From contig JAUMXY010000005.1 of NCBI GenBank assembly GCA_030528885.1, forward strand, positions 6,924-70,923: a DNA stretch of 64,000 nt, written 5' to 3'. This DNA is from Bacteroidales bacterium. GTDB lineage: Bacteria; Bacteroidota; Bacteroidia; Bacteroidales; Bacteroidaceae. Position numbers and translations under genes: made by a program. How positions within the stretch are numbered: the first letter of the stretch is position 1; every line of letters starts with the position of its first letter. Below the pieces are notes generated by a model, which had not been told where the DNA came from, did no database searches, and saw nothing but the letters and a program-made list of their open reading frames with translations. This document shows positions 27,577-48,928 of the stretch, piece by piece.

Positions 27577-29247
27577 TTGTTGAATCTAAACAACACTATT
27601 ATGTCGATACGTTCCAATTCTCTACCACTGAGAGGCGATTTGTCGCCAGAGCTGCAAGACATCCTCAGACGGAATGGTATGCAAGCGCACATCATCCGTC
27701 AGGGCGATGGCTTCCAGTTGGCAGTTCAAGGGCATGACTCTCCACTTCTCACCTATCCCATCTCTGCCCAGCAGATGAAAGCCATGACAGACTGGGGTAC
27801 GAATTATGCCAACAAGAATGCCTACAACACCTTTGCGGCACTTGTCGGCAATGACTTTTATGTTCCAAGGAACTTCGTACATGCCCGTAATGCCAACGGA
27901 CGTGTTGCCATGGGACTTCACGGTTATAGGATTGGTGTCGGTGAATATGGCCGTATGGCTTGGGACAGACGTGGGCTGCATCCCATGTGGGGACTGCATG
28001 ACCGTTTCTTCTTGGGCTGGACACCTCGACAACAAGCAGGTTCCCACATGCGACGTGTCGGTGGTGCGCTCTTCATGCAGGGTGCTCCAATGGTTCCAGA
28101 CCGTCCCGATGGTCGCATCAAGCCAGGAGAGTTGCAGAATGGCGGTTACGGATTCTACTATAAAGAACAGCCGATAGCCGTTCAGCCTCCGAAACAGGAT
28201 GTGCTGGCTGACCTTCAGACAGTCATCACTCCTATGGAATTGGCTCCACGGAAGCTGGAACCAGCCAAGCCTTATAATGAGCTTATCACCTCGAAGGTCT
28301 ATTTCTCCAATGAGAAGTTCAAGGAGTGTCTGGACAGTCACGGCATCGTGATTGATCCTGAGAAGAAGACTCTCACCATCCAGTCCTCTGCCACTAAGCA
28401 GGATTTCGTCTATGACCTGACTGAGGAAGAAGTAAAGAAGCTGACAAGCAACTCCATCAAGGGAGTGCCTGTTCAGCAGCGTCTCGACATTCTCAACAAT
28501 GTCATCAAAGGCGACTTCAGCGAGAAGATTACGATGGATATGCTTAATTCCAAGGAGCAGATTGGCATTAAGCTGAAGCCAGAAGTCGAAGCAGAACTGA
28601 ATGACCGCCAAACACAGATTCTGGAACAGGCAAATATTCCCCTGACTATGGACGGCAGACAGGTTCAGTTAGAACCAGAAGACCGTTCCGTTGCTCATGT
28701 TGACGGCAATGCCCTCTATGAACTCAATGAGGGCAAGGCATGGTATCGAGAGGGGAAGCATGGTCGTGAAGTCAATGTCGATGACATCAAGGTTGAGCCA
28801 GTCAGGAATGAAAAGGGCGAAATCGAGAATGATGCCAAGGGCGAAGCCAAGTACCGCATGACAGCGGTCATCAATGGTGAGAGCATCAGCCATGAGATTA
28901 CTCAGAAGCAGTATGATAAGTTCATGGCCATCGATGACTATCATCGCATGAAACTCTTCTCCCATATCTTCAGTGAGGTGGACATGAAAAACATTCCTGG
29001 TATGCACACCAGCTTGGGTGCAAAGATTGGTGGAGCCTTGCTTGCCGGACTTGCCATCACACATGAGCTGACCCATGACTTCCACCATCACAGTGGGCCA
29101 TCCATTTTCATGGAGCATCATGGGCCTGACAGACCCCATGTGTATTTTAAGCCTGGTGTTGACTCACCGCAGGAGTTGGCATCGAGGGCTTTTGATGCAG
29201 GACTGAATGCTCGAGAACACGGCGTAGGATTAGGACACACAAGGTAA
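27577..29247 (+). CDS. hypothetical protein (556 aa)
   Basis: Longest ORF in this interval; the antisense 329-aa ORF is rejected. The start may be MSIRSN at 27601. Confidence 0.5.
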   Translation: MLNLNNTIMSIRSNSLPLRGDLSPELQDILRRNGMQAHIIRQGDGFQLAVQGHDSPLLTYPISAQQMKAMTDWGTNYANKNAYNTFAALVGNDFYVPRNFVHARNANGRVAMGLHGYRIGVGEYGRMAWDRRGLHPMWGLHDRFFLGWTPRQQAGSHMRRVGGALFMQGAPMVPDRPDGRIKPGELQNGGYGFYYKEQPIAVQPPKQDVLADLQTVITPMELAPRKLEPAKPYNELITSKVYFSNEKFKECLDSHGIVIDPEKKTLTIQSSATKQDFVYDLTEEEVKKLTSNSIKGVPVQQRLDILNNVIKGDFSEKITMDMLNSKEQIGIKLKPEVEAELNDRQTQILEQANIPLTMDGRQVQLEPEDRSVAHVDGNALYELNEGKAWYREGKHGREVNVDDIKVEPVRNEKGEIENDAKGEAKYRMTAVINGESISHEITQKQYDKFMAIDDYHRMKLFSHIFSEVDMKNIPGMHTSLGAKIGGALLAGLAITHELTHDFHHHSGPSIFMEHHGPDRPHVYFKPGVDSPQELASRAFDAGLNAREHGVGLGHTR

Positions 29248-29270
29248 AAGGATTTATTCAGGATAACAAA

Positions 29271-30797
29271 ATGGCAGAACTTACCTACGACGATTTTAAG
29301 AACAAGCTCAGTATTCAGGATGTGCTGATAGACGCTGGCTACACGTTGAACAGACGCGACGGCTTGCGCTATCCGTCGTATGTAAGGCTGGACAGCGAGG
29401 GCAGACGTATTCGTGGTGACAAGTTCATCGTCACTGCCAATGGCCTTTGCTGTTTCCTGCCGCCTACGCGGAAGAACTACAACGTCATCAGCTTCATTAA
29501 GGAGCATCCAGAAATGTTCTCTGACTACACGGCTGGCATGGATAAGGACAGACTCGTCAACCTTGTCTGCAACAGACTTTTGAATAATCCTATCGAGGAA
29601 AGGGAAAAGAAGATTATCAATCCACAGCGTGACCTTCCACCTTTCAAGATAGACGATTACAAGCTGCATCGTTTTGATGGCAATGACAGGGAAACACAAA
29701 AGCCGTTCTATCCTTATTTCCAGCCAAGAGGTATCAACCTTAGTACGCAGTATGCTTTCCATCATCATTTTGTCCTTGCAGAACGTACAGTTGGCGACCA
29801 GACTTACAAGAACCTTTCTTTCCCAATGACCATTCCTGGTTCTTCAGACGAAAAGGTTGTCGGTTTGGAAGAAAGGGGAAGAAGAAAACAGGATGGCACA
29901 TCCTACAAAGGCATGGCCAGAGGCTCCAATGCCAGTGAAGGTCTTTGGATTGCCAGTCCGATGGGCACCAAGCTACAGAATGCCAAGCGAGTCTTCATCT
30001 TTGAGAGTGCCTATGATGCAATGGCTTTCTATCAGATGCTGGCTGGCAAAGATAGTAACCTTACCACACAGGAAAAGAAAGAGCTTGTTGGTGGTGTCTA
30101 TGCCTCTACGGGTGGTAATCCTTCAGCCAAACAGTTTGAAGGATTACTGAGAAGTGCCAAGGATGCCACTTTTCACATGGGCTTTGACATGGATGATGCC
30201 GGAATGAAGTTCGAAGACATGTTCAGGGATTTGGCAGAAAAAGCCAACGTGCCAAGTAATCGTGTCGTCCGTGAGGAAACAAATGACGGCTATAAGGACT
30301 TCAATGAAGAGCTGCTTGCCATGATCGAGCGTAAGAACCATCCGCTGGCAAAGGGCAATGTCCCTGAAGAATACAAGGCTTACGTGGATTCCTTCAGAAA
30401 AGGAACGGATGACATACCATCCACGAAAGATGTGCTTCATCCGAATAGTGAGCAGATTGACCTTCTTCCGAAGTCTGTCCAGAAGCTCTACGCCAGATAT
30501 GAAGCCCTGTATGAAGATGCCTACGAGATGCGTTCTTCCAGACTTGTTGCAACATGCGACAAAGAAGAAGCCATCAACCAGGCATCAGAGGCATGGAAGA
30601 CTTTCAAGGAGAGTCTTTGCAAGGCTCTTGACATCAAGGAGGACACGGCGGCACTCGATGTGGAATCCGAAGATGTTGGCAATGACAAGAAGATACAGCA
30701 TGACGTGGACTATACCACCAGTGTTGACGAGCAAGGCAACATTGCAATGGAGGTAGAGACATCAGATCAGGAAGAGCGAAGACATTATCATCGGTAA
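29271..30797 (+). CDS. Toprim-domain protein (DUF3991/primase-like)
   Basis: 508 aa. VFIFESAYDAMAFYQ (Toprim Glu) ... ASTGGNPS ... MGFDMDDAG (DxD). Confidence 0.7.
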   Translation: MAELTYDDFKNKLSIQDVLIDAGYTLNRRDGLRYPSYVRLDSEGRRIRGDKFIVTANGLCCFLPPTRKNYNVISFIKEHPEMFSDYTAGMDKDRLVNLVCNRLLNNPIEEREKKIINPQRDLPPFKIDDYKLHRFDGNDRETQKPFYPYFQPRGINLSTQYAFHHHFVLAERTVGDQTYKNLSFPMTIPGSSDEKVVGLEERGRRKQDGTSYKGMARGSNASEGLWIASPMGTKLQNAKRVFIFESAYDAMAFYQMLAGKDSNLTTQEKKELVGGVYASTGGNPSAKQFEGLLRSAKDATFHMGFDMDDAGMKFEDMFRDLAEKANVPSNRVVREETNDGYKDFNEELLAMIERKNHPLAKGNVPEEYKAYVDSFRKGTDDIPSTKDVLHPNSEQIDLLPKSVQKLYARYEALYEDAYEMRSSRLVATCDKEEAINQASEAWKTFKESLCKALDIKEDTAALDVESEDVGNDKKIQHDVDYTTSVDEQGNIAMEVETSDQEERRHYHR

Positions 30798-30799
30798 CT

Positions 30800-31291
30800 A
30801 TGGAACAGGTAATCAGACGCTTCAACATCATCACGCTTCGCCCACATTGGGCGCAGTATATCATCAGTCAGGGATTGATGTTCCTTGTCAGTATGGTACT
30901 GTTCCTTGTTGCCGGACATGAAGCCATCACCTTCAAGGCACCATTCCTGATACTTGGTACCATCACAACCCTTATGATGCTTTACGGCTGTCTGTATCTG
31001 TGCAAGCTTAGGTTCATTGTTTCCTCTGAGCAGCTTATCATCCAGCATGGCATCTTCCATAGGACAAGCGACTACATTGAGCTTTACCGCATCGTGGACT
31101 TCAGCGAGAGCAGGGATATACTGGAACAGTTGTTCGGGCTAAAGACCGTCAGCATCTACAGCGGTGACAGGACAAATCCCAAGCTCGACATTTACGGAGT
31201 GAAAGAAAAGCTCGATGTGGTGGCTATCATCAGAGAAAGAGTTGAATACAATAAACGCAGAAAAGGCATTTATGAAATCACCAATCGGTAA
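30800..31291 (+). CDS. membrane protein with bacterial PH (bPH_2/YdbS-like) domain
   Basis: 163 aa with two TM helices followed by SSEQLIIQHGIFHRTSDYIELYRIVDFSESRDILEQLFGLKTVSIYSGD. Confidence 0.55.
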   Translation: MEQVIRRFNIITLRPHWAQYIISQGLMFLVSMVLFLVAGHEAITFKAPFLILGTITTLMMLYGCLYLCKLRFIVSSEQLIIQHGIFHRTSDYIELYRIVDFSESRDILEQLFGLKTVSIYSGDRTNPKLDIYGVKEKLDVVAIIRERVEYNKRRKGIYEITNR

Positions 31292-31301
31292 CATCTATCC
31301 T

Positions 31302-32021
31302 ATGAACAAAGACCGATGGCATTTTGACCAACGGTGGTGGACAGTCGCAGTTATGGCGTTTGTCCTCTTGTGGTTGAGTTTCGGGAAAGCCCATGCCCAG
31401 ATAACCTCCAGTAATCCATTGGAATATGTGGCACTGGCAGAGGGCAACGAACTCATCAATGGTCAGATCAAGACCCAGATTGATGACCAGCAGAAGACCG
31501 CACTGCTTCAGAACGGCATTGCAGCCGAGTTTACGATGATCCACAAGTGGGAAAAGAAGTACAACTCCTATCTGAAGACGGTGGACGGCTATGCCAGTAC
31601 ATTGAAAGCCTGTACCACACTATATGATGACGGTGTACGCATCTTCATCAACCTCTGTAACCTGAGAAAAGCGATGGCCGACAATCCGCAAGGTATCGTA
31701 GCAACCATGTCTATGAATAACCTCTACATAGAGACGGCCACGGAACTTGTGACCATCTACACGACATTGAGGGATGCCATTGCCAAGGGAGGTACAGAGA
31801 ATATGCTTACTGGAGCCGAGAGAAGTAAAACCCTTTGGGCACTCAATGACAGGCTCGATGCTTTCAATAAGAAACTCACCAAGCTCTATCTCTCCATCCG
31901 CTACTACACCATGACCGATGTATGGAACAGTGTAACCGCCGGAATGCTTGACCGTACCAATGGGGAAATAGCACTCCAGGCCCACAGACGATGGATAAGA
32001 TGTGCCAGAGCTGCATACTAA
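31302..32021 (+). CDS. secreted helical protein (paralog A)
   Basis: ORF trimmed to MNKDRWHF...; signal peptide ...SFGKAHAQ. The C-terminal ...LNDRLDAFNKKLTKLYLSIRYYTMTDVWNSV is collinear with the next gene. Confidence 0.5.
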   Translation: MNKDRWHFDQRWWTVAVMAFVLLWLSFGKAHAQITSSNPLEYVALAEGNELINGQIKTQIDDQQKTALLQNGIAAEFTMIHKWEKKYNSYLKTVDGYASTLKACTTLYDDGVRIFINLCNLRKAMADNPQGIVATMSMNNLYIETATELVTIYTTLRDAIAKGGTENMLTGAERSKTLWALNDRLDAFNKKLTKLYLSIRYYTMTDVWNSVTAGMLDRTNGEIALQAHRRWIRCARAAY

Positions 32022-32034
32022 AACGGAATGAATC

Positions 32035-32733
32035 ATGTTGAATAAATCTTTCTTTGTCATAATCATGCTGACTCTCGCCCTCCCCTTCGGGGGAGTTGGT
32101 GGGAGTATGCTCCATGCTCAGGGCAATGACCCTGTGCTGGCAGGAATGATTGCGCTCTATACGGACAAAGCCAAGAAAGAGCTGAAGCAACAGGAAAAGA
32201 TGATGCTGCTGGAGGCAACAGGCCATATCTGGATTACCGAAGAGGTCAATGCTACCACAGACCTTCAGAAGGAGTTCAACAAATACCTTGATGACTTTCA
32301 CAGCATCATAGCCTATGCAGCACAGATATACGGTTTCTACCATGAGATTGACAGGATGGTTGACAACCTTGGAAGTTTCAGCCATCAGCTAAGTGCTCAT
32401 CCCACTAATGCCCTTGCAGTGGCACTTTCCGCTAATCGTAACAAGATCTATCGGGAGATTATCATGGGAAGCGTGGATATTGTCAATGACATCCGTCAGG
32501 TCTGTCTCGCCAATACCAAGATGACTGAGAAGGAACGTCTGGAGATCATCTTTGGCATCCGTCCCAAGCTCAAACTCATGAACAAGAAACTCCAGCGTCT
32601 CATCAAGGCGGTGAAATACACGTCACTTGCTGACGTATGGGCAGAGATTGATTACAGTGCCAGGAGTGAAGCGGACAAAGCCAGTATCACAAGGCAATGT
32701 ATGGAACGCTGGAGGCGAAATGGGAGAAGATAA
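32035..32733 (+). CDS. secreted helical protein (paralog B)
   Basis: 232 aa with a signal peptide. ...IRPKLKLMNKKLQRLIKAVKYTSLADVWAEI parallels paralog A. Confidence 0.5.
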   Translation: MLNKSFFVIIMLTLALPFGGVGGSMLHAQGNDPVLAGMIALYTDKAKKELKQQEKMMLLEATGHIWITEEVNATTDLQKEFNKYLDDFHSIIAYAAQIYGFYHEIDRMVDNLGSFSHQLSAHPTNALAVALSANRNKIYREIIMGSVDIVNDIRQVCLANTKMTEKERLEIIFGIRPKLKLMNKKLQRLIKAVKYTSLADVWAEIDYSARSEADKASITRQCMERWRRNGRR

Positions 32734-32762
32734 TTGATTGTTGAACTTAAAGAGCATAGAAA

Positions 32763-33467
32763 ATGAGTTGGAGTTCATTACTCAAAGCAACATTTAAGTA
32801 CGGTGGCCGTGCAGCCAAGGCAACGGCTTCATCCGTTGGCAGTGCTGTCATCCATCCTCAGAGAACCATCAAGGGACTCGGCACAGCCACCAAGACCGCT
32901 GCTGTCGGCGGTGCTGCCGCATACGTCGGCTGGGAAAAGCTGACTACAGACAAGAGTGTCGCCCGTATTGTTGGCGATGCTGTCGTTGGCTCAGATACCA
33001 TTGATACGGTCAGTGACAAGGTTGATGGCGTGGCCAATACCGTAACCGAACTGAAGGATTCCGTAGGCGGTGCTGTCGATACCATGAACAATGCCATGAC
33101 CAGTGTGGATAGCAAGTGGAGCGGCATGTCAAACTTCCTTCGTGGTGTGTTCTCTGGCAACGGAGGCGATATATTCAGTAACTTCTTCAGCAACCTTGGC
33201 AAAGGCAATGTGTCAGGTCTCAGCCTTGCAGGACTGGTACTTTCAGCCTTGCTTGTTTTCGGACGTTTCGGATGGCTCGGAAAGATAGCCGGAGCAGTCC
33301 TTGGCATGATGATGATTGGCAACAATGCCAATATGAGTCAGGTGCTGGGAGGTGGACAGCAGAAGCCTTTAGCGCAGGACACTCCACAGAGGGAGCTACC
33401 GAAGCCACAGGCACAGGTCATTCAGGTGGAAGAAACGCCAAGGGAACAGATTCACAGAGGCAGATAA
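32763..33467 (+). CDS. Gly/Ala-rich membrane protein
   Basis: 234 aa with C-terminal TM helices (LSLAGLVLSALLVF, IAGAVLGMMMIG). Confidence 0.45.
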   Translation: MSWSSLLKATFKYGGRAAKATASSVGSAVIHPQRTIKGLGTATKTAAVGGAAAYVGWEKLTTDKSVARIVGDAVVGSDTIDTVSDKVDGVANTVTELKDSVGGAVDTMNNAMTSVDSKWSGMSNFLRGVFSGNGGDIFSNFFSNLGKGNVSGLSLAGLVLSALLVFGRFGWLGKIAGAVLGMMMIGNNANMSQVLGGGQQKPLAQDTPQRELPKPQAQVIQVEETPREQIHRGR

Positions 33468-33495
33468 TCAAAGAATAACTTTCAAGGATAACAAT

Positions 33496-34326
33496 ATGCA
33501 GTTTACACATGAAATGATACTCCAGTCAGACAGCGGCTACTGTATGCCGTTTGAGGAGAAGAACAAAGATGTAGAAATGTCGCTCGGTTACGGCAAGCAG
33601 AAGCATCCTAAGACAGGAGAAAAATTCTTCCATCACGGTATTGACTTCGATGTCAAGCACTACCTCCTTTCAGCCGTTGCAACAGGCAAGGTGTCAGGAT
33701 TGGGGAATGATGCCATTCATGGTATCTATCAGGTCATCCGCTACGGCAACTATGAAGTGACCTATTCCCATCTGTGCAATGTCTTTGCCAACTACGGACA
33801 GGTGGTAAAGGCTGGTCAGGTGGTTGCTGTAAGTGCCGACATGCTCCACATGGAAGTTAAGTACAATGGCGAGGAAATGAACCCGTTGGAATTTCTCACC
33901 ATGATTTACGGCAACCTCAAAACAATGGAACAGCAAGGTCAGGTTGGTGCTGTGCCTCAGTTCGTCACCATCGACATGGACGTGCATACCATGTACGACA
34001 AAGACCAGAAGGAGATTGAAGAGCTGATGATGCGCTTCTTCCCGGACTACATGAGTGACATGAGCAATGGCCTGTACTCCATTCCTGAGCATACGGAACT
34101 TGCGCTTCGCAACATCTTCACTATGTCAGCGATGAAGAACTATTTCTATGAGACCCTGCCCAGCATGGCAAATCCTTTGGGAATGGGTGCCAGGAGTATT
34201 CCATTGGCTGAGAAGGTGCAGAACCTGCTGATAGCCGATTTCCTTAACTATCTGGCATTGAGGCATCATGTCTTCCTCAGTACGATGTCAGCACTCGAAA
34301 AAAAAAAGCTGAAGACAGAGCCGTAG
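33496..34326 (+). CDS. M23-peptidase-domain protein (zero-frame product)
   Basis: 276 aa with HHGIDFDV and the M23-like segment ...TYSHLCNVF...GQVVAVSADMLHMEV. Ends just after an A10 tract. Confidence 0.7.
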   Translation: MQFTHEMILQSDSGYCMPFEEKNKDVEMSLGYGKQKHPKTGEKFFHHGIDFDVKHYLLSAVATGKVSGLGNDAIHGIYQVIRYGNYEVTYSHLCNVFANYGQVVKAGQVVAVSADMLHMEVKYNGEEMNPLEFLTMIYGNLKTMEQQGQVGAVPQFVTIDMDVHTMYDKDQKEIEELMMRFFPDYMSDMSNGLYSIPEHTELALRNIFTMSAMKNYFYETLPSMANPLGMGARSIPLAEKVQNLLIADFLNYLALRHHVFLSTMSALEKKKLKTEP

Positions 34327-34370
34327 CCAGTAGCGGACTCATCGATCCGCAGGCAGAGCTGGAGATTGAC

Positions 34371-34631
34371 GTGCAGAGCTTCGATATACCAAGGCTTGTC
34401 AGTGTCTATCCAGACAAAAGCGGAATCCGATGGTGGACAAAGGCATGGTTCAACAACAGCGAGGCAGGTGAAGCAGCCATAGAGATTGACCGTATGCTGG
34501 CAATCAAGTTCATCAATGACAATGTAGATAAGGACGAATGGTTAGAGGAATACTTTCCAAAACAGATGGAAGTCTATCATCACGCCATCGAACAGACAAA
34601 AGAACAGATATTAAACCAATTGAACTTATGA
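34371..34631 (+). CDS. ORF in the -1 frame, reachable from the M23 gene by slippage at A AAA AAG
   Basis: The -1 frame is open from the A-run (34298-34307) through 34631. The listed ORF begins at a GTG with no obvious independent start context. Its stop overlaps the next ATG (ATGA). Confidence 0.4.
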   Translation: MQSFDIPRLVSVYPDKSGIRWWTKAWFNNSEAGEAAIEIDRMLAIKFINDNVDKDEWLEEYFPKQMEVYHHAIEQTKEQILNQLNL

Positions 34632-35269
34632 TAACAAAAAGATTGTTTTCCATAATATTCGCTATGCCAATGGCAGTGTCCTCATTCGCAGACAGTGGCT
34701 TGTCTGGTTTGAGCGATGCTGCTGACGGCGTAGGTTCTTACCTTCCTTATGTTCAGGGAGTGTGTTATGTGATAGCTGCCGTGATAGCCGTTGCAGGTGC
34801 CATGAGCATCTATCTGAGTATGCAGACCAATCCTAACCAAATCAGAAAGAGGATGATGATGACTGTAGGCAGCTGTATGTGCTTCGTGTTGATGGCTACC
34901 GCCTTACCTCAGTTCTTCGGAGTTGATGGCAGTGGTTCTTCCACAGGAGGAAGCAGCAGTTCATCTACTGGTAGCGGAACCTCAGACGGGTTCCTTGCCT
35001 CTGACCAAGGAGGAATCTCACAGACTGGCATCAACACGGAAATACCATCCTTCCATGACCAGACAGGAAACTGGATAACATTCCCTCCTGAAACGAATAT
35101 GACAGTGGCCAATCACCTGATGGACATCTATGATCATTTCGGGTCAGGACGTGAAGGCTCGTATGGACGTACTCTTGCATACATTCACAATGCCTATCGT
35201 CAAGGTCAAATCGACCATGACATGTTTGAGCAGCTGATGAGAATATCGGGTAATCTTCCCCATAACTAA
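34628..35269 (+). CDS. VirB2/TrbC-like (DUF4134-like) pilin-type membrane protein with C-terminal extension
   Basis: ORF trimmed to MITKRLFSIIFAMPMAVSSFA (signal peptide). Two hydrophobic helices (VCYVIAAVIAVAGAMSIYL, MMMTVGSCMCFVLMATAL), a Ser/Gly linker and an ~80-aa tail. Confidence 0.45.
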   Translation: MITKRLFSIIFAMPMAVSSFADSGLSGLSDAADGVGSYLPYVQGVCYVIAAVIAVAGAMSIYLSMQTNPNQIRKRMMMTVGSCMCFVLMATALPQFFGVDGSGSSTGGSSSSSTGSGTSDGFLASDQGGISQTGINTEIPSFHDQTGNWITFPPETNMTVANHLMDIYDHFGSGREGSYGRTLAYIHNAYRQGQIDHDMFEQLMRISGNLPHN

Positions 35270-35290
35270 CCTGTAACATCACTTTAAGTA

Positions 35291-36712
35291 ATGGCAGAAA
35301 CGAGCAACGATAAGTTATTCAGGACTAAGGTCTTGCCGATAATGGACAAAGTAATGCGAGACCTTCGGTTAAAGCAGTCTGAAGAGATGGCCATTCATAC
35401 CAGCAGCTTGCCGTATATCATGGCTGGGGCAGCTGGGCCTGACGGAGGAATGTCGGCACAAGCAGCCAGTCTTGCCTCTCTCAGATACACGGGAAAGTGG
35501 AACTCCAAACATACTGAAGACTACATTCAGATGGTCAAAAATGAGCTGAAAAAGCAGCACATCGCCGTCACTCCAGAGATAGAGAAGATGATGATTGAAA
35601 AGATGATCAAGGATGAGATTCCGAAGTCATCCATTGACTATATCATGCGTAAGGCAGCAACCAACACCATCTTCTATCTTCCCCAGGCACTTAACAAATC
35701 ACCACTGGAGAACCGTATCACGGCACAGGCTGAGAAGAAGTATAACCCATCCACTTTGGAAAAAGGAACAGGTTATGTCTTGGGAGCAGCCGCAGACTAT
35801 ATGACGATGGGCGGTATCGGTGGCAGTTGGTCTGGAGCAGCCAAGTTTGTTGGTGTTGACCTTGCCTTGAATGCTGCCATCGACAAGGTGGGAGCAAAAG
35901 AAACCGATGACGTTCCTTTGATTATTGCGCCCGAACATAGAGCCGAAAACAAGGCTACTCAGGCAAAAAGGAATAAGGAACAACCCAAGCTAAAACCAAA
36001 AGAAAATACCCCAACAGTGGAACAGACAACGGGAACACAGGCACAGCAGCCTGTAAACGAAGAAAAAGAAGTCGATCAGGCTCAACCAGAAACACAGCAG
36101 GAACAACCACAGCAGACCAATCAGAATGGCTGGAGCGGATTGCTCAGTTCTGTTGGTCTGAACGGCATTTCCGACATAGGTCACAATCTAGGCTATGTAC
36201 TGGCCATGCTTCCAGACATGCTTGTTGGCATCTTCACTGGTAAGACCAAATCCCTTGGTCTGAAGGATAACATGCTGCCTTTAGCCAGTATTGTGGCAGG
36301 TATGTTCGTCAGGAATCCCATTCTGAAGATGGTTCTTATCGGTATGGGAGGACTCAACCTTTTGAACAAGGCAGGTCACGAAGCCTTGGACAACCACAAT
36401 GGAGTCAGCTACGGACAAGGTGGAAACGCCAATATCCGTGGCAACTACAAAGTCTATGAGGATGAAACCCTCATTGCCCGAATCTCGCAACCGCAGATTA
36501 AGGGCAACTGTCTGATTGCAACCATCGACAAGGTTCCATGCACCATCGCATTGCCAGACAGAGTGGTGGACGCATACAATCAGGGCGCACTGCCTCTTAA
36601 CACCCTTGCCAATGCCGTACTTGCCAAGAACGACCAGATGCGACAGATAGCAGCTGAAAACTATGCAGCCAGTGAACAACAGGCTCAGACCAGGACACTT
36701 GCACAACGATAA
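35291..36712 (+). CDS. hypothetical membrane-associated protein (473 aa)
   Basis: Gln/Pro-rich linker and C-terminal hydrophobic helices. No family recognised. Confidence 0.45.
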   Translation: MAETSNDKLFRTKVLPIMDKVMRDLRLKQSEEMAIHTSSLPYIMAGAAGPDGGMSAQAASLASLRYTGKWNSKHTEDYIQMVKNELKKQHIAVTPEIEKMMIEKMIKDEIPKSSIDYIMRKAATNTIFYLPQALNKSPLENRITAQAEKKYNPSTLEKGTGYVLGAAADYMTMGGIGGSWSGAAKFVGVDLALNAAIDKVGAKETDDVPLIIAPEHRAENKATQAKRNKEQPKLKPKENTPTVEQTTGTQAQQPVNEEKEVDQAQPETQQEQPQQTNQNGWSGLLSSVGLNGISDIGHNLGYVLAMLPDMLVGIFTGKTKSLGLKDNMLPLASIVAGMFVRNPILKMVLIGMGGLNLLNKAGHEALDNHNGVSYGQGGNANIRGNYKVYEDETLIARISQPQIKGNCLIATIDKVPCTIALPDRVVDAYNQGALPLNTLANAVLAKNDQMRQIAAENYAASEQQAQTRTLAQR

Positions 36713-36736
36713 TAAACCCATTAAAACAATAGAGAT

Positions 36737-39244
36737 ATGCAGGAAAAGAACCCACAGGAGAAAGCAGCAGCCGAAAAACAGGCTGAACTTCTCATCAATG
36801 CAATGGAAAGAGCCAAGGAGAATGGCGGCTTATGGTTAAACCCATCAGAGAAGACGGCACCTCGTTTCTATCCACGAGGTGTCAATGTCTCAGCCTTCAA
36901 TGCCATGACGATGGCACTCCACAGTGACCAGAATAACTACAAGACCAACGAGTACACGCTCTTCAGCGAAGCCAAGAAACGAGGTGAGTCTGTACAGTCC
37001 AAGGAAAAGGGAGTTCCCTTCAACTGGTACAACTGGAAGGATTATGTCAACAGACATAATCCTGAAGATGTCATCAGCAGTGAAGACTACAAGGCTTTAG
37101 ACGAGAAGCAACAGGCAGAATACAAGGGAGTCAGAACCCGTGAAGTCCGTGCTCTGTTCAATATCGACCAGACAACCCTTCCTTTCGTTGACAAGGAACG
37201 TTACGAGCAGGAAGTCAAGACACATGGAACCTCTGAGGATCGTGAGCACTCCAAATCAGAGAGTGACCACCTCCGTCTTTTTGTCAACGATTTCATCCTG
37301 AAGACACGAGACAACCTTGTTCCCATCCGTCTTGATGGCAGCGGTGTTGCCCACTACGATGCCAAGAAAGATACGGTGTATATGCCAAGTGAGAAGGATT
37401 TCGAGTCTTACAAGGACTTCACCAACGAACTCATGCGTCAGGTGGTTAGTGCCACAGGCAATGCCCAGCGTCTTGGACGCAACGGCATGAACAACGGAAA
37501 CACCTCTCCTGAAGATGCAGCAAAGCAGGAACGCCTTATTGTCGAGTTGGCTGCTGGCAGTAAGATGCTTGAATTGGGACTTCCTGCCAAGCTCTCTGCT
37601 GAAAGCATGAAGATGGTCGATTACTGGCAGCGTGAACTCAAAGAGAATCCCTGTCTCATTGATGTCGTGGAGATGGATGTAAACAATGCTTTGGATATGC
37701 TTCACAAGGCAGAGCGTGGTGAGAAGGTTGAGTTGGCATCCCCACAGCAGAAAGAGGAAGCTCAGGCTGAACAATCCAAGCACTACTATGTAGCTGATGA
37801 GCTGAAGAACCTGCCCAACAAAGACACCAAGGAATTTGTCGTAGTACGTGACTCCAAGGCAAAGAAAGCGGATGTCGTACTCCCTGCAGGTGCTTCCTTA
37901 GAGGTGGACAACGAGATACCAGGCATGAACAAAGGACGTATCGAGAAAGCCTTACGAAAGGAAGGCTTTGAGACCATTTCCTTCTTTAACATGGATGGCT
38001 CGCTGGGCTATCGTCCTGATGACAGCTTCTTCGCTGGCAAGGAAGTTTCCGTTTCCAAGCTCAACAACTGGGAACTGAGAGACCTTGCCAAGCTCGATGT
38101 TGCAGAATCCGTCAGCCGTTCCAACTCTGTTGCTTTCGACAAAGTGCTTATGTTGAGGGATGACGCTGGCAAGTGGGCGATGTTCCTGAAGCCAGAGAAT
38201 GAGCCATCCTTTGCCGTTTATGCTGACAAGGCAGATGTCAACCGCTTTTTCGTGACCATGAAGCAAGGCAATGAAGAAGCCAGTGACCACATGCGTCTGG
38301 AGATGGCTTCCAGATACTATGCTATGGCGATGGAGAAGCCTGAGTTGAAGACAGACCTTTTCAAGAGTCAGGCTACTGCCGAGGAGTTGGCACGTATCGA
38401 GCGTGTAAACATCTTCAAGACCAAAGCCACAGACAACAAGCCGAGTGTCATTCTGTGCGTACCTACCATCGACGGCAACAGGCTTCAAGCCCGTGAGGTC
38501 AATCAACAGCAGTGGCAGCGTATGTGGCTGGCTGATGACAAACAGGACTACAAGACCCACCTTGCAGCATCCCTTTTTGCCGACGTGCTCCGTAAGGAAC
38601 GTACCGATGCCGTAGCCGTTGGTACAGACAAGACTGAGCAGGAAGCACAGTCTGAGACCAAGGAGCAGACAAAGAATGTTGAAGTCCATGAAGAGGAAGA
38701 CAAGAAGAAGGAGCTGAAGGAAGAGCAGACGCAATCTGAAAAGAAGCAGGAAGAAGAAAAGCGTCGTAACTCTCCAGAACAAAAGGAGAAAGAGGGTAGG
38801 GAGGAAAAAGCCAAGGAAGAAGCCACCAAAGCAGAGACCAAAGCCGTAGCTGCCGTAGTCCTTTCTCCGATTATGAAGCAGTTCCTGGACTTGAAAAGCA
38901 AGCATCCAGACGCTCTTCTACTGTTCCGCACAGGTGATTTCTATGAGACTTATCAGCAAGACGCTGAAAAAGCCTCTAAGATACTCGGTATCACTCTCAC
39001 TAAGAGCACCAAGCAGAAAGGGCCTGATGGCAATGCTGTAAAGATGGCAGGATTCCCTTACCATGCCCTGGACACATATCTGCCAAAACTTATCCGTGCA
39101 GGAGAGCGTGTAGCCATCTGTGACCAGTTGGAAGCTCCCAAGCAGACAGCAAAGCGTGGTATCTCAGAATTGGTGTCACCTGGTGTTGCCTCAGAAAAGG
39201 AAGCAAAGGCAGAACCAGAGAAGCATCAAGCCTTTCATCGATAA
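36737..39244 (+). CDS. fusion protein: ArdC-N (DUF1738)-like ssDNA-binding domain + degenerate zincin region + K/E-rich linker + MutS domain I
   Basis: 835 aa. N-terminus [19 protein letters not shown]...[20 protein letters not shown] (DUF1738 pattern). [28 protein letters not shown] sits where ArdC has HExxH. C-terminus [28 protein letters not shown]...[30 protein letters not shown] is collinear with the E. coli MutS N-terminus, including Phe-X-Glu. Confidence 0.75.
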
Positions 39245-39262
39245 CCCAAAAGAGTAAATAAC

Positions 39263-40861
39263 GTGACAGCATCAAGACAAAAGTATATTGAGGAACATGC
39301 AGCGGAAGCTATGGAGCAGATGCGCAGATATGGCATCCCTGCATCCATCACTCTTGCCCAAGGTATCATTGAGTCAGCAGAAGGAAAGAGTATGCTCTCC
39401 AGAACTGCCAATAACCATTTCGGTGTAAAGGGTGAGTTCAATGGTCAGTTCGTCCGTGCCGACGATGACAAGCCCAATGAGAAGTTCAAGAAGTATGATA
39501 ACGTTGGGCAGAGCTATGAAGACCACAGTAAAGTCCTCATGGCAGACCGCTATCAGAAATACACCAGGAACCTCTCTGCTGATGACTACAAAGGATGGGC
39601 TGCTGGCATCAAGGCAGGTGGTTATGCTACCGCCAAGAACTATGTCAGCACCATCGTTGGAGTCATTGAAGGGGCAAACCTGCAGAAATACGACCAGATG
39701 GTGATTGAACAGGCTAAGAGAGAGGGTAAGAAGATTGGCGCCACAGACTACCGCAAGGGAGATGTGTCTGCCACTCCTGCCAATAGTGTTACTGCAAAGC
39801 CCACTCCCAATGGTCTTTATTCCCTTCCTTTGAAACGAGAGGAGTTCATGCTTGTGACTTCACCTTTCGGCAACCGTCGTTACCCAATGGATCACAGCAA
39901 GACGCAGTTCCATAAAGGAATTGACGTAAGCTGCAAAAACGAAGCACTACTTGCCACAGAGAACAGCGGCAATGTGGTTGGTGTGAACCACAATGCCAAC
40001 ACTGGTGGTGGCAAGTCGGTTACGATTGAGTATAACCGTGAGGATGGCAGCAAGTATCAGACGACCTACATGCACATGTCGAGCATCGACGTGAAGGTTG
40101 GTGATACGGTCAATGCTGGTCAGAAGATAGGCGTATCAGGTAATACTGGAACCAGGACAACAGGGCCACATTTGCATTTTGAGGTCAAGACCATTGCCAG
40201 TGACGGCACGAAGCGCAATATTGACCCTGCTGCATATATCGCAGAGATAAGCCAGAAAGGTGGACTGTCTCAACAGCTGCTTCATAACGGAAAAGACTTG
40301 TTGGCCAGCTATAAATCTGCAAATCCTGTAGCTCAGGAAACGGTCACAGTCCAGCAGCAGATTGACACGAATATGTCACCTGACGAATGGATGAAGAAAA
40401 TCTTGTCTTCAGAGGACAGCGGTATGAGCATGAACCCGAATGGTGACCCGGTGATAGAGATGGCCATGACTCTTTTCACCTCACTGATGGCATTGGCAAT
40501 CCAGATTGACAACAAGAGCGAGGAGGAAAAGATGCAAGCTGTCACTGATGCAGCAGCCAACAGACAGATAGACCTGATTTCTCTCCTCCCCCACATGAAA
40601 GTGTGCAATCTTATCATTACTGATAGCAGGCCACTTCTTCAGGTGGATAACGGCACGGTGAACTTCACCCATGAAATCAGCAATGCTGAAATGACAAGAC
40701 TCCAACAAGCCTTGGGAAACAGCAACCTCTCAGAGGATGACAAACGTCGTGCAGTAGCCAGTGTGGTTAACGGCATCGTTGTTTCACAGCAGATGTCTCA
40801 GAACTATCAGCAAGGCGTGGATGCACAACAGAACCAGGAACAATCCATTCAAAGGAAGTAA
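39263..40861 (+). CDS. bifunctional cell-wall hydrolase: GH73 glucosaminidase (FlgJ-like) + M23 peptidase
   Basis: 532 aa with GIPASITLAQGIIESAEGKS...NNHFGVKG (GH73) and HKGIDV...GNTGTRTTGPHLHFEV (M23). GTG start; an alternative ATG lies at 39311. Confidence 0.8.
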   Translation: MTASRQKYIEEHAAEAMEQMRRYGIPASITLAQGIIESAEGKSMLSRTANNHFGVKGEFNGQFVRADDDKPNEKFKKYDNVGQSYEDHSKVLMADRYQKYTRNLSADDYKGWAAGIKAGGYATAKNYVSTIVGVIEGANLQKYDQMVIEQAKREGKKIGATDYRKGDVSATPANSVTAKPTPNGLYSLPLKREEFMLVTSPFGNRRYPMDHSKTQFHKGIDVSCKNEALLATENSGNVVGVNHNANTGGGKSVTIEYNREDGSKYQTTYMHMSSIDVKVGDTVNAGQKIGVSGNTGTRTTGPHLHFEVKTIASDGTKRNIDPAAYIAEISQKGGLSQQLLHNGKDLLASYKSANPVAQETVTVQQQIDTNMSPDEWMKKILSSEDSGMSMNPNGDPVIEMAMTLFTSLMALAIQIDNKSEEEKMQAVTDAAANRQIDLISLLPHMKVCNLIITDSRPLLQVDNGTVNFTHEISNAEMTRLQQALGNSNLSEDDKRRAVASVVNGIVVSQQMSQNYQQGVDAQQNQEQSIQRK

Positions 40862-40862
40862 C

Positions 40863-41054
40863 ATGAATGAAAGAATCTTCAATAAGGTATTGACCTTGCT
40901 GATAGCCGGAGCTATCATCATCAGCATCATCTATGGACTTTATTGCCTGTTAGGTCTGATCGGATGTATTATCTATTGTTCTGTCATGGTAGCCTTACTG
41001 TGCTGGATAGCGGAAGACATCAGACATGCAGCGACAGAAGACCAGCAATTATAA
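40863..41054 (+). CDS. small two-TM membrane protein (63 aa)
   Basis: MNERIFNKVLTLLIAGAIIISIIYGLYCLLGLIGCIIYCSVMVALLCWIAE. The start lies 2 nt after the hydrolase stop. Confidence 0.4.
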   Translation: MNERIFNKVLTLLIAGAIIISIIYGLYCLLGLIGCIIYCSVMVALLCWIAEDIRHAATEDQQL

Positions 41055-41091
41055 CTTTTCTCTAAATATTAACTTCTAATTTTCAGCTTTT

Positions 41092-41706
41092 ATGATTAAA
41101 TGTAATGTAACAGTTTGTGGTACCATCTCACGCTCAGCGCAGATGCGTACAGGTAAGGAGGGTAAGCCCTTCATGTCATTAGGTGTTAACGTGGTCATCC
41201 CTGCCAAGTCTGGCATCAACAAGACCATAGAAATCAGCGTGGCCAAGGATGGTGGCTCTCAGGAGGAACTTGCGAACTATCCTGTAGGCAATCGTGTCGA
41301 GGTGGTTGGCACTCTAACTTTCCATAAGAAAGGAGAAGTTTTCTATCTGAATCTCTCTGCAACAGGCATCAACACCTTCAGCGCAGGTTCTGAAGACAGT
41401 GTGAAGGGTGATATCGAGTTTCGCGGCACGCTCGGCAATAAGATTGAGGAGAAGAAGAACAAGAAGGGCAATCCCTTCTGTGTGTTCTCAGCCTTCAGCA
41501 GCGAGAAGAACGGCGAGAACTACGATTACACCTGGATCCGTTTCCTCCAGTTTGGCGAGAGCCGTAAGGACTGGATGCAGCCCAAGGCAGGCATCAATGC
41601 CAAGGGAGAACTCCAGATGTCTGTCTATAACGACCGTCTTGACATTGCTTGCCGTGTCAGTGAGGTGTCTAAGTGGGACAAGACAGCTAACAATCCTAAC
41701 ACCTAA
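41092..41706 (+). CDS. tandem OB-fold SSB-like protein
   Basis: 204 aa. Two repeats of an SSB-like pattern (VTVCGTISR...GKPFMSLGV...VEVVGTL and IEFRGTLGN...GNPFCVFS...INAKGEL). No acidic C-terminal tip. Confidence 0.5.
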   Translation: MIKCNVTVCGTISRSAQMRTGKEGKPFMSLGVNVVIPAKSGINKTIEISVAKDGGSQEELANYPVGNRVEVVGTLTFHKKGEVFYLNLSATGINTFSAGSEDSVKGDIEFRGTLGNKIEEKKNKKGNPFCVFSAFSSEKNGENYDYTWIRFLQFGESRKDWMQPKAGINAKGELQMSVYNDRLDIACRVSEVSKWDKTANNPNT

Positions 41707-41711
41707 AGCCT

Positions 41712-43208
41712 ATGCGTAAGGATAATAAATATAACCATGTAGGGCCATCAGCCGAAGACAGAGCTTTGGAAAAGTTCGCCGAAATGATGATTGAGAAAAT
41801 CTCAACTCTTCAGAGCGACTGGAAGAAGCCTTGGTTTACGGAAGGTGCCCTTACATGGCCTAAGAACCTCTCAGGCAGGGAGTACAATGGCATGAACGCT
41901 ATGATGCTCATGATGCACTGCGAGAAAGAAGGCTTCAAGTTGCCTGTATTCTGTACTTTCGACCGTGTGGTTGGTCTCAACTACGGCAAGGACAAGGAAG
42001 GTGGTAAGGTGCAGCTTACCGATGCAGAGGGCAATGAACTACCCAAGGTGTCCATCAACAAAGGAAGCAAATCCATCCCTGTATTCATCACCACCTTCAC
42101 CTGTGTTGACAAGGAGACGAAGGAGAAGATTAAGTATGATGACTACAAGCGACTTTCAGAGGAGGATAGGGCGAAATACAACGTCTATCCAAAACTGTCT
42201 GTCTATAACGTCTTCAATGTTGACCAGACGAACCTGAAGGAAGCTCGCCCAGAACTGTATCACAAGCTGGAGGAACAGAATCAGCAGGTGCGTCCACAAG
42301 TGGCAGAGGGCGAAGAGTTCTCTTTCAAGCCTGTTGACCACATGATTGAGCATAACGAGTGGATTTGTCCCATCAAGCCTATTCATGGTGACAATGCCTA
42401 TTACAGCATTTCAAAGAAGGAAATCGTCATACCAGAGAAATCACAGTTCAAGGATGGCGAGTCTTTCTATAGCAATCTTTTCCACGAGATGGCACATTCA
42501 ACAGGTGCTGATGACCAGTTGGACAGGCTCAAACCAACCTCTTTCGGCAGTAAGGAATACAGTACCGAGGAGCTGAAGGCAGAAATGACGGCTGCGCTTG
42601 TATCTCAGCGTTATGGCATGACCAAGCATCTGAAGGAAGATTCAGCTGCCTATCTCAAAGGCTGGCTGGAGAGTCTGAAGGAGGAACCAACCTTCATCAA
42701 GACCATTCTGACAGATGTGAAGAAAGCATCACAGATGATTACCCAAAAGGTCGATGCCATTCAGCTTCAGTTGAACAAAGGTGTTGACGAGGGGAAGTCC
42801 GAATCACAGCCGGAACAGTCGAAACTGAAGAATATGGGCACCTTTGACATTCCTGAATGGAGCCTGAACTATCTGGAGAACGGTGATGCCACCAACCTGA
42901 CCGATGAGGAGGTGGCCAACGTTGATGCGTTCACCAAGGAACACTTCCCAAATGGCTTCGTGATGAACATCGACTTCGAGAACAGCACGGAGTTAAACCG
43001 ATACCCTGCTTTCGGGCCCAGGAACGAGGAAGCCTTGACCAGCAAAGGCGAGTCACCGTTCCTTGCCACGAAGACTTACCCCGTCACTTTCTATGATGCA
43101 AGAGAACGTGAAAGCAAGGAGTCGTCCAGTCTGTCTGAAGCTGTTGCCGCAAAGGAACCACCCAAGGAGAACGAGGCGCAAAGCATCGGACATCGTTTTC
43201 ACCGATAA
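41712..43208 (+). CDS. ardC: ArdC-type antirestriction protein (DUF1738 N-domain + HExxH zincin domain)
   Basis: 498 aa with KPWFTEG...NLSGREYNGMNAMMLMM...FCTFDR (DUF1738) and FYSNLFHEMAHSTG (intact HExxH). Confidence 0.75.
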   Translation: MRKDNKYNHVGPSAEDRALEKFAEMMIEKISTLQSDWKKPWFTEGALTWPKNLSGREYNGMNAMMLMMHCEKEGFKLPVFCTFDRVVGLNYGKDKEGGKVQLTDAEGNELPKVSINKGSKSIPVFITTFTCVDKETKEKIKYDDYKRLSEEDRAKYNVYPKLSVYNVFNVDQTNLKEARPELYHKLEEQNQQVRPQVAEGEEFSFKPVDHMIEHNEWICPIKPIHGDNAYYSISKKEIVIPEKSQFKDGESFYSNLFHEMAHSTGADDQLDRLKPTSFGSKEYSTEELKAEMTAALVSQRYGMTKHLKEDSAAYLKGWLESLKEEPTFIKTILTDVKKASQMITQKVDAIQLQLNKGVDEGKSESQPEQSKLKNMGTFDIPEWSLNYLENGDATNLTDEEVANVDAFTKEHFPNGFVMNIDFENSTELNRYPAFGPRNEEALTSKGESPFLATKTYPVTFYDARERESKESSSLSEAVAAKEPPKENEAQSIGHRFHR

Positions 43209-45375: not shown

Positions 45376-46830
45376 TTATCGCTTCAGTTTACGTCTAGAA
45401 CCAGAGCGCATCATCTTGGTAGCCATCATCGCACATCGACGCGCCCATTCACGATCATCATCTTTAGGGTCTCGTCCCCATCCTGAAGATGGGCCACCTC
45501 CTCCACCGTGCCCCTTGGCAAACTCTGTAGCCTGTTCGACATATCCGGCAAACAGAAGCATGGCGCAAGCCACAATCTGGTTCCCGTGTTCAGCAACGTC
45601 CATCAGTACTGACTCGTCCAGATGAAGCTGAACGTCATCAGGCATCTGTGGGAGTCTCAATCTGAAATCACTGACCACATTCTCATAGAGAGCCTTGGTC
45701 ACTTCATCGCGTACCTTTTGCTGCACCGAAGTAGCCACTTGTGTTGCTTCACCTCGTAGCTCTTCTGTGCGTTCCTTGATGTTCTCGGCCTCTTCCTTCA
45801 ACTTGTCAAGTTTATCCTCAGCATCAGACAATTTCTGCTTCTTATCTGCCAGTTTAGCATTGATGTCTACGAGTTGTCTGTGAAGAGCAGCTATCTTATC
45901 TTCATTGGAAAGCTTGCCATCAGCATTATCCAAAACAGAAGATGCCAGACTATCCAGTTCTCTCTCAACTGATTCCTTGTCCTTTTCAAGATTGAGCACC
46001 ATTGAGGTAAGACCTTTCACACGACGTTCTGCCAGTGAAATTTCCTGTTGAAGACCTGACAGCACCTTACGATGGTTCTCTATCTTGTCTTCCAGTGTGA
46101 CACACTCCTCATCGAGCAAACGGCGGTACTCTTCCGTTGAGCGGTGTCTGGCTCCAGTCTCGGTGATGCTTGTGCCACGATAGAGACCCCATTTCTCGTT
46201 CACCTTGGCAAAAGCATCATGCATGGCCAGTGTCCTTGCCTTGAACTCAAATTTGTCCTTTCCTGCAAAAATCTTCTTGTAGGCGAAGCGACCATTCTCA
46301 TCTATAGGAAGAAGAGTAAGATGCACATGAGGATTCATTTCGTCCAAGTGAACGACGAAAGCAGCAATGTTTTCCTCACCGTATCTGTCACTGACGAAGT
46401 AGTACATATCCTTCGCCCATTGTTCTATATCCTTGCTACGTTTCAGGTGTGAATTATCAGCACCTTTTGCCAGGTTCACTTTCTGGTCACCAAAAGCGAT
46501 TTCAAGCATTCGCTCACGGCTTCCTCCAAGGATGAAATTCACCACTGTTCGGAACCGTGGTTCTTCAAGCCCTTCATTTGGATCCTTTATACCACGATCT
46601 GCAAGATTTGCTGCGATTCGCTCTGGGATGCTCCTGGTCTTATCGACTGGCTGTATTTTGCCTCCTTTGGTTATCTCGAAATTCAGATGCTCACGAGTCA
46701 AATCATAGTTGCCTATGGAAAGAGCATGTTTCAATGTCTTGTCAGAATAGACACGTAGATGCTCGTTGCTCTGCGATACCGTAAAGCCTTTAGAGGCACG
46801 GAAATCAATTACCTGTTTAGCTCCATTCAT
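45376..46830 (-). CDS. mob: MobV-family (Mob_Pre) relaxase
   Basis: 484 aa. YGEENIAAFVVHLDEMNPHVHLTLLPI matches the HxDE..PHxH signature; followed by a coiled-coil C-terminal half. Confidence 0.8.
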   Translation of the reverse strand: MNGAKQVIDFRASKGFTVSQSNEHLRVYSDKTLKHALSIGNYDLTREHLNFEITKGGKIQPVDKTRSIPERIAANLADRGIKDPNEGLEEPRFRTVVNFILGGSRERMLEIAFGDQKVNLAKGADNSHLKRSKDIEQWAKDMYYFVSDRYGEENIAAFVVHLDEMNPHVHLTLLPIDENGRFAYKKIFAGKDKFEFKARTLAMHDAFAKVNEKWGLYRGTSITETGARHRSTEEYRRLLDEECVTLEDKIENHRKVLSGLQQEISLAERRVKGLTSMVLNLEKDKESVERELDSLASSVLDNADGKLSNEDKIAALHRQLVDINAKLADKKQKLSDAEDKLDKLKEEAENIKERTEELRGEATQVATSVQQKVRDEVTKALYENVVSDFRLRLPQMPDDVQLHLDESVLMDVAEHGNQIVACAMLLFAGYVEQATEFAKGHGGGGGPSSGWGRDPKDDDREWARRCAMMATKMMRSGSRRKLKR

Positions 46831-48925: not shown

Positions 48926-48928
48926 ACA

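Follow-up and report, generated by a model that had tools for sequence, protein, structure and literature searches.

A polyvalent protein from a putatively mobilisable Bacteroidales element, with an ArdC-like part, a predicted dead zincin domain and a MutS domain I

The stretch of DNA analysed here (the window, 64,000 nucleotides (nt) in full) comes from a Bacteroidales bacterium of the Bacteroidaceae (assembly GCA_030528885.1, contig JAUMXY010000005.1, positions 6,924 to 70,923 of the forward strand) and carries the operon of a putative mobile element. We studied one gene of this operon, the query, whose product joins an ArdC-like N-terminal third to a MutS mismatch-recognition domain (MutS-I) near the C-terminus. 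In RefSeq and JGI the family is labelled 'DUF1738', 'antirestriction protein ArdC' or 'zincin-like metallopeptidase domain-containing protein'. The open reading frame (ORF) called in a first-pass annotation, which was made from the sequence alone, was recovered at the same coordinates and on the same strand. The parts of the gene, and of its product in amino acids (aa), are the following.

36737..39244, + strand: whole gene, an ATG-to-stop ORF of 835 aa; ArdC-like part, inactive MPTase, central module, charged linker and MutS-I in this order
36767..37111, + strand: ArdC-N (DUF1738), putative single-stranded DNA (ssDNA)-binding domain, aa 11-125; PF08401, and the structural model matches 6i89
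37331..37657, + strand: MPTase-PolyVal zincin-like domain, aa 199-307, predicted to be catalytically dead; PF18818
37436..37450, + strand: RQVVS, aa 234-238, the HExxH equivalent in the alignment to R388 ArdC
37532-37534, + strand: R266, in place of the third metal ligand E229 in the alignment to R388 ArdC
37757..38611, + strand: central module, family-specific, aa 341-625, mixed beta/alpha in AlphaFold2; without a Pfam match
38657..38851, + strand: Glu/Lys-rich low-complexity linker, aa 641-705; from composition and model confidence
38867..39199, + strand: MutS domain I (mismatch-recognition domain), aa 711-821; PF01624
38933..38947, + strand: GDFYE, aa 733-737, Phe-X-Glu motif (F735, E737); alignment to E. 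coli MutS
39227..39241, + strand: C-terminal basic tail ...QAFHR; a similar tail is found on most operon proteins

The domain anatomy read in the first-pass annotation holds, and the fusion is well conserved. The Pfam matches are far beyond chance for ArdcN at aa 11-125 (E 3.5e-5, 24.4 bits against a gathering cut-off of 22.6), for MPTase-PolyVal at aa 199-307 (E 1.5e-11) and for MutS_I at aa 711-821 (E 1.2e-33, 116 bits, profile positions 2-112 of 113), and the same three domains occur in >120 full-length homologs of 62-96% identity. The hidden Markov model scan that the annotation had named as a check, with PF01624 and PF08401, gave scores above chance for both, and the last ~110 aa, which it had taken for MutS domain I, match nearly the full profile. 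The K/E-rich linker was also there as described, with 20 Glu and 15 Lys in the 65 residues 641-705. An AlphaFold2 model of the whole protein was built from 23 homologs; in it the linker has a predicted local distance difference test score (pLDDT) below 50, and MutS-I reaches 50-64 because the alignment is shallow, the fold of this domain being assigned by sequence and not by the model.

The novelty of the fusion had been overestimated in the annotation: ArdC-N, MPTase and MutS-I were already described together by Iyer, Burroughs, Anand, de Souza & Aravind (2017, J Bacteriol, PMC5512222) in 'polyvalent proteins' of phages and conjugative elements, and the architecture of the query has been known since then. 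According to that study, polyvalent proteins with MutS-I are found in Bacteroidetes and Firmicutes, in ~80% of the cases with ArdC-N, which itself is usually N-terminal and paired with MPTase in ~70% of cases. The polyvalent MutS-I was described as a module that binds nucleic acid and was inferred to derive from classical MutS, and its suggested role was to recognise distinct features or short ssDNA stretches of the entering or replicating element (PMC5512222). The peptidase partner of ArdC-N may be active or inactive (PMC6222260). The query has three Pfam domains and the central module and is encoded by a MobV element with primase and lysins, which places it among the polyvalent proteins; it shares their domain set, the Bacteroidetes lineage and the mobile-element context, but its family is small for the class and the MPTase appears dead family-wide. 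New here are the mapping of the dead site, the strong constraint on MutS-I in this clade together with its repeated loss in others, the regular company of an intact ArdC, and a tail at the C-terminus that is shared in the operon and may serve export. Iyer et al. proposed binding of ssDNA features, not interference with mismatch repair (MMR), and did not report the lability of the motif and domain or the paired intact ArdC.

The assignment of the N-terminus to DUF1738/ArdC-N, made in the first reading, rests on PF08401 above its cut-off and on structure: the first ~320 residues of the model superpose on the complete crystal structure of R388 ArdC (6i89) over 321 columns and both domains (Foldseek, E 1.7e-12, target-normalised template modelling (TM) score 0.74). 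By sequence, R388 ArdC matches the query marginally (phmmer E 0.059). In R388 ArdC (PDB 6i89/6sna; Gonzalez-Montes et al. 2020, PMC7213743) the metal ligands are H201, H205 and E229 and the base is E202; the protein binds ssDNA and acts in the recipient against HsdRMS. In alignments to R388 ArdC and to a paralog encoded in the window, H201 corresponds to R234 in the query, E202 to Q235, H205 to S238 and E229 to R266. Neither the catalytic Glu nor any of the three metal ligands is kept, and from the residues present the zincin is confirmed as dead. The annotation had also taken it to be inactive, reading NELMRQ in place of HExxH, but in the wrong register: NELMRQ is aa 230-235, and the true equivalent, RQVVS at aa 234-238, overlaps it only at R234-Q235.

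Anywhere in the protein, HExxH was found in 0/24 genomic orthologs, and the active-site-equivalent positions vary freely among homologs, which is why the inactivation of the zincin is likely to be old and family-wide. Because the active site appears dead, self-processing in cis by the query's own MPTase can be excluded. Previously, it has been shown that the E229A mutant of R388 ArdC is fully active in antirestriction and that protease activity is not needed (PMC7213743); a dead-zincin ArdC-type protein can therefore still function. The two proteins are alike in having ArdC-N followed by a gluzincin-like domain. Unlike R388 ArdC, the query is without any metal ligand, has ~500 extra residues (central module, linker and MutS-I), belongs to a Bacteroidales host and is encoded by an element that seems mobilisable, not self-transmissible.

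At the other end of the protein, GDFYE (aa 733-737) aligns to G34-D35-F36-Y37-E38 of E. coli MutS, and the Phe-X-Glu pair that the first reading had seen as kept corresponds to F36/E38. The domain is 47-48% identical to domain I of E. coli MutS and ~70% identical to genuine Bacteroides MutS. No other MutS domain (connector, core/lever and clamp, i.e. MutS_II, III and IV; the ATPase MutS_V; the dimerisation domain) was detected in the query with Pfam, NCBIfam or a PDB sequence search, in agreement with the earlier statement that ATPase and clamp are absent. The NCBIfam MutS models match only over positions 2-118 of 793 or 840 (137 and 122 bits against cut-offs of 480 and 642), and the PDB sequence matches are limited to residues 11-123 of E. 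coli MutS (E 1.5e-24). The query thus has a full-length domain I as MutS does, but nothing of the connector, core/lever, clamp, ATPase or dimerisation domains; judged by its domains it is not a MutS or a mismatch-repair protein and would be unable to form a clamp, hydrolyse ATP or signal to MutL. Binding of primer-template junctions by MutS was considered as a model for MutS-I and rejected, the reported site being in the core domain (R272/N279) and not in domain I.

The closeness of the domain to the MutS of the host lineage (~70% to Bacteroides mutS, 61-63% to MutS-length representatives) and its MutS-like positive charge would fit a decoy directed at MMR. The tethered MutS-I would then occupy mismatches or heteroduplex of the element DNA, or compete with host MutS, and spare the incoming DNA from repair and anti-recombination. 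We regard this as unlikely. Structural knowledge of MutS indicates that its affinity for mismatches comes mostly from the clamp domains and the dimer, which are outside domain I and absent from the query, and a literature search gave no evidence of MMR limiting the establishment of plasmids or site-specifically integrating elements.

In the query clade (23 sequences, 63-89% identity) MutS-I is the best-conserved region of the protein, with a median identity to the query of 82.6%, compared with 70.5% in the central module, 70.3% in the linker, 68.7% in ArdC-N and 63.1% in the dead MPTase. G733, D734, F735 and Y736 are invariant in the 23-sequence alignment and E737 is present in at least 90%, and the net charge of the domain is about +3 to +4, as in MutS. 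That Phe-X-Glu and the whole of MutS-I are under the strongest constraint in the protein in this clade could also be expected of an anti-MMR decoy. It argues against the tail being an evolutionary relic, a captured fragment without current function; a relic would hardly be the most conserved segment with GDFY invariant in 23 sequences.

The wider family, found by a search with the family-specific central module and by a survey of reference genomes, shows the orthologous gene in other states as well. Among 204 cluster representatives with both central module and MutS-I, Phe-X-Glu is kept in 177 and Phe and/or Glu is lost in 26, the degenerate motifs including GEVYR, GDNYV, GTVYR, HDRYE and NLNYR. 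In the reference genomes, Phocaeicola paurosaccharolyticus and Parabacteroides leei have GDTYQ, a Phocaeicola sp. metagenome-assembled genome (MAG) and a MAG labelled Brevinema have GNTYQ, and the Parabacteroides distasonis plasmid NZ_OY725765.1 has TKDGYR at the motif site. The MutS-I remnant of Bacteroides sp. ET71 is barely recognisable, and a 651-aa form that ends after the central module occurs in Mediterranea massiliensis, B. caecigallinarum and Prevotella sp. CAG:755. Proteins of 400-520 aa with central module and MutS-I only were considered as a second architecture and rejected as split or truncated gene calls (a scaffold gap, frameshifts, a contig start).

The two states of the motif were compared at equal divergence of the central module (~50-55%):

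Motif intact: MutS-I 72-77% identical to the query and ~49% to E. coli MutS; median net charge +3
Motif lost: MutS-I 34-57% identical to the query and ~30% to E. coli MutS; median net charge -2

In a neighbour-joining tree of the central module, made without bootstrap, lineages with intact and with degenerate MutS-I are interleaved, and therefore the motif has been lost at least 4-5 times independently. The forms without MutS-I fall within a degenerate group, and this looks like stepwise decay from intact through degenerate to deleted. Since motif and domain have been lost repeatedly in sister lineages, MutS-I is an optional accessory. Where it is kept, it is under the constraint of a genuine MutS domain in contact with DNA, and elsewhere it decays.

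The degeneration of the motif, the loss of charge and the outright deletion of the domain in sister lineages are what a relic would leave behind; members with an intact motif nevertheless keep 72-77% identity in MutS-I where the rest of the protein is at ~50%, and we consider a relic in the query highly improbable. Patchy and repeated loss is also the pattern expected of a host-dependent counter-defence accessory, as an anti-MMR decoy would be, although many healthy orthologs do without the motif or the domain. In a narrower form, the ArdC-N-tethered MutS-I would keep host MutS off the element DNA in the intact clade, and its decay in other lineages would be due to hosts or lifestyles without this pressure; this form, too, has a small probability in our view. 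Finally, MutS-I might mimic a surface of host MutS and recruit or titrate a host factor, e.g. the replication clamp or some other protein of repair or defence, without binding lesions. Mimicry would agree with the unusual closeness of the domain to host-type MutS, with its conservation, which is also unusually strong, and with its N-terminal helix, which parallels the segment MMQQYLRLK of MutS, a segment discussed as a clamp-binding site in E. coli. We find mimicry very unlikely, however: the known MutL and clamp interfaces of MutS are mainly outside domain I, no partner is known, the conservation is centred on the DNA-contact motif GDFYE, and the loss of the motif accompanies the loss of positive charge, pointing to DNA as the ligand.

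Between the ArdC-like part and the linker lies the central module, which occurs in this protein family only. Modelled separately (aa 341-640), it reached a mean pLDDT of 81 in AlphaFold2. Foldseek gave no structural relative at E<=0.001 in PDB or BFVD (TM <= about 0.37, most <0.3), no sequence family matched it in Pfam or NCBIfam, and a profile comparison with the DUF4099 protein of the operon was negative.

The query gene is part of a + strand operon, the main features of which are listed here with the relaxase gene that lies close by.

26562-43208, + strand: the operon, from gene neighbourhood
29271..30797, + strand: Toprim_2/DUF3991 primase-like protein; Pfam and synteny
39263..40861, + strand: glucosaminidase and M23 peptidoglycan hydrolase; Pfam; adjoins the query gene in all loci examined
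41092..41706, + strand: SSB/PriB-like OB-fold protein, a weak match; located after the lysin and before the intact ArdC, position conserved
41712..43208, + strand: paralogous ArdC with ArdcN, MPTase and DUF6926 and an intact HEMAH; Pfam and synteny
45376..46830, - strand: Mob_Pre (MobV) relaxase; Pfam; mobV also on the related plasmid NZ_OY725765.1

The operon encodes a DUF4099 protein, a 556-aa protein, the Toprim_2/DUF3991 primase, a bacterial PH-domain protein, M23 peptidases, a DUF4134 protein and a 473-aa membrane-type protein, together with the query, the glucosaminidase/M23 lysin, the SSB/PriB-like protein (Pfam SSB E 3.7e-5, below the cut-off; PriB_gamma E 0.003) and the second ArdC; OmpA and the MobV relaxase are on the opposite strand. 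The query gene is separated from its neighbours by 24 and 18 nt, the latter towards the downstream lysin, and the guanine-cytosine (GC) content of the operon is ~47-49%, compared with ~36-41% for most flanking genes. Gene order is kept in loci where the ortholog is only 50-62% identical, also on NZ_OY725765.1, a 52-kb circular plasmid. The second ArdC matches R388 ArdC with E 3.3e-19 and has both HEMAH and the EE glutamate helix intact. This intact paralog lies two genes downstream of the query gene in the window, and it accompanies the dead-zincin/MutS-I gene in every locus examined. The two look as if they divided the work, one paralog being catalytic and the other not.

Judging from its genes, the element looks mobilisable rather than self-transmissible. 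Neither a tyrosine integrase nor tRNA genes were found in the window. Related elements are present across Bacteroidales of gut and rumen: a 98% identical copy is carried by Xylanibacter (Prevotella) brevis ATCC 19188, and orthologs were found in Prevotellaceae, Bacteroides, Phocaeicola, Parabacteroides, Mediterranea and Sodaliphilus. A nucleotide search of plasmids gave no close relative and one 146-bp match, the relatives being found at the protein level. Other genes of NZ_OY725765.1 encode a serine recombinase, SSB and an LPD11 protein, and there are phage-tail-sheath genes but no type IV secretion system (T4SS). Its phage tail tube and sheath genes (47977-50465) adjoin the MobV/ArdC module, and MOB-suite types this plasmid as 'non-mobilizable' despite the mobV relaxase. 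In one metagenomic copy of the operon (L001, 15008-18586) a tyrosine recombinase trio stands between the SSB-like and intact ArdC genes and looks like a secondary mobile insertion.

Several other genes of the window were observed in passing. A few kb downstream of the element core, an error-prone polymerase pair (54178-55920, +) consists of a UmuD-like (Peptidase_S24) and a UmuC-like (IMS, IMS_C, DUF4113) protein, with a GmrSD-type nuclease (52205-54139) and a small serine recombinase (50689-51411) upstream of it. A SLOG protein is encoded at 57368-58027, and the related 52-kb plasmid has a similar SLOG protein and a serine recombinase. In the low-GC flank (16622-20177, -), a SNF2-family helicase (738 aa) adjoins a radical-SAM protein (444 aa), which may be a defence-type pair, unrelated to the query.

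A further feature of the operon is a basic tail ending in Arg, which is present in 9/14 operon ORFs and in 4/39 other ORFs of the window (Fisher p = 2e-4). The tails of the operon proteins read ...MGHLR, ...LGHTR, ...RHYHR, ...IHRGR, ...RNGRR, ...TLAQR, ...QAFHR (the query), ...SIQRK and ...HRFHR (the intact ArdC), and that of the relaxase ...RKLKR. Similar tails are found on orthologs in loci that are ~50% identical (operons L004, L016, L020, L024 and L027), and the tail is kept whether the protein has MutS-I, a degenerate MutS-I or no MutS-I (...KTGMKR). From this pattern, the shared tail may be a C-terminal export or translocation signal; no described counterpart came up, and no literature search was aimed at one.

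The operon also allows the query to be seen as a donor-side accessory, acting with the MobV relaxase and the primase at the origin of transfer (oriT) or at the replication origin, where MutS-I would recognise a distorted or extruded origin. The gene shares its operon with the Toprim primase, the SSB-like protein and DUF4099, the relaxase is close by, and the element is without a transfer apparatus of its own. However, ArdC-type proteins are known as recipient-side establishment factors (PMC7213743), orthologs without MutS-I occur in otherwise identical operons, and the shared basic tails suggest export; a role in the donor is thus quite improbable.

The domain is by no means restricted to this family. 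An exhaustive HMMER search with aa 701-835 of the query against 1.84 billion representatives gave 13,825 matches, 271 of them below 1e-30. The best 150 of the 13,825 were mostly non-MutS proteins, with MutS-I C-terminal, internal, within proteins of 3,000-7,400 aa or in 2-4 tandem copies, and MutS-length proteins appeared only at 61-63% identity to the query MutS-I. The partners sampled were ArdC-N/MPTase (on either side), SSB OB-fold, DarA_C, DUF6926 and a nucleotidyltransferase. Single-copy non-MutS architectures kept Phe in 43/44 and Glu in 39/44, and in multi-copy proteins the extra copies of MutS-I are degenerate. Some proteins (P0183, P0207 and P0223) have 3-4 MutS-I in tandem (phmmer domain E<=1e-5; up to 5 stretches in the search table), usually with only one copy carrying Phe-X-Glu and the others degenerate, a mixture that brings to mind the MSH heterodimers and the asymmetric dimer of MutS; one of them also has the DarA_C anti-restriction domain. 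Another protein with a C-terminal MutS-I and an intact motif, from a rumen Bacteroidaceae MAG (L038, ~9900-12800), was examined as a true mutS and rejected; it adjoins a methyltransferase-like ORF (NPPF-type motif) and probably belongs to a large polyvalent protein of the methyltransferase/helicase type. The domains that co-occur with mobile MutS-I (ArdC-N, SSB, DarA_C) point to ssDNA protection and anti-restriction, not to recombination, and in this respect they speak against an anti-MMR decoy.

Two systems offer partial parallels. Diversity-generating retroelements have MutS-like (MSL) accessory proteins and MutS_I-like extensions of the reverse transcriptase (Wu et al. 2018, PMC5758913), and here again a mobile or selfish element makes use, outside MMR, of a mismatch-binding module that derives from MutS. 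The comparison was made by description only, and unlike the query these proteins have no ArdC or relaxase context. That such small MutS-like proteins accompany makers of mismatched intermediates (PMC5758913) is a point in favour of the decoy. In XPC/Rad4, BHD domains derived from ArdC-N are fused to an inactive peptidase-like domain in a non-catalytic sensor of lesions and distortions (Krishnan et al. 2018, PMC6222260). The likeness is no more than an analogy; the inactive domain there is a transglutaminase and MutS-I is absent. A literature search found no experimental study of a polyvalent MutS-I or of an element-encoded MMR antagonist.

In the reading that we favour, and to which we give about an even chance, the query escorts or protects incoming element DNA without catalysis and uses MutS-I as a second head for distorted duplex. 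This reading extends the view of Iyer et al. (2017). The operon of the query would serve the processing and establishment of DNA for a MobV-type mobilisable element, either a plasmid or an integrated island, and the protein would load on transferred or replicating element DNA. ArdC-N would bind the single strand, with the metalloprotease domain as an inactive scaffold, and the flexible Glu/Lys linker of ~65 residues would tether MutS-I, a copy probably captured from a Bacteroidales MutS. MutS-I could then insert its Phe-X-Glu wedge where the duplex is distorted, i.e. at mismatched or bulged hairpins of the folded single strand and at heteroduplex spots. DNA coated or marked in this way would be protected from the nucleases of the recipient during entry and second-strand synthesis. 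Any proteolytic function would be supplied by the protease-competent ArdC paralog two genes downstream, and during establishment the query would work beside this intact ArdC, the SSB-like protein and the primase. The basic C-terminal tails are compatible with a co-export of the operon proteins.

Several points weigh against the escort reading. The DNA-binding roles on which it depends are predictions for every member of the family, and domain I on its own may have little affinity for DNA, as clamp domains and dimer supply most of the affinity in MutS. The repeated loss of motif and domain shows, as far as can be judged from the orthologs, that the core function of the family is independent of MutS-I, and the central module has no assigned role in the model. 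Neither a T4SS ATPase nor a coupling protein could be recognised in the window, and a helper element would therefore be needed to deliver the protein into a recipient. In addition, R388 ArdC is needed in the recipient by way of its expression there and was not shown to be transferred (PMC7213743).

As the architecture was already published, the value of these results is in refinement and testability rather than in discovery. A built-in natural experiment on the contribution of the domain is provided by close orthologs that share the operon but have MutS-I intact, degenerate or missing. Should the anti-MMR explanation be true, the query would be the first natural, element-encoded antagonist of MMR at the protein level, a repair-pathway counterpart of anti-restriction, and a new class in the anti-defence repertoire of plasmids and integrative and conjugative elements in the gut and rumen microbiota. 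Bacteroidales elements of gut and rumen move genes at high rates. If MutS-I binds mismatched or distorted DNA alone, it would be a naturally minimised mismatch sensor and would show in what way mobile elements reuse the repair modules of their hosts to escort their own DNA.

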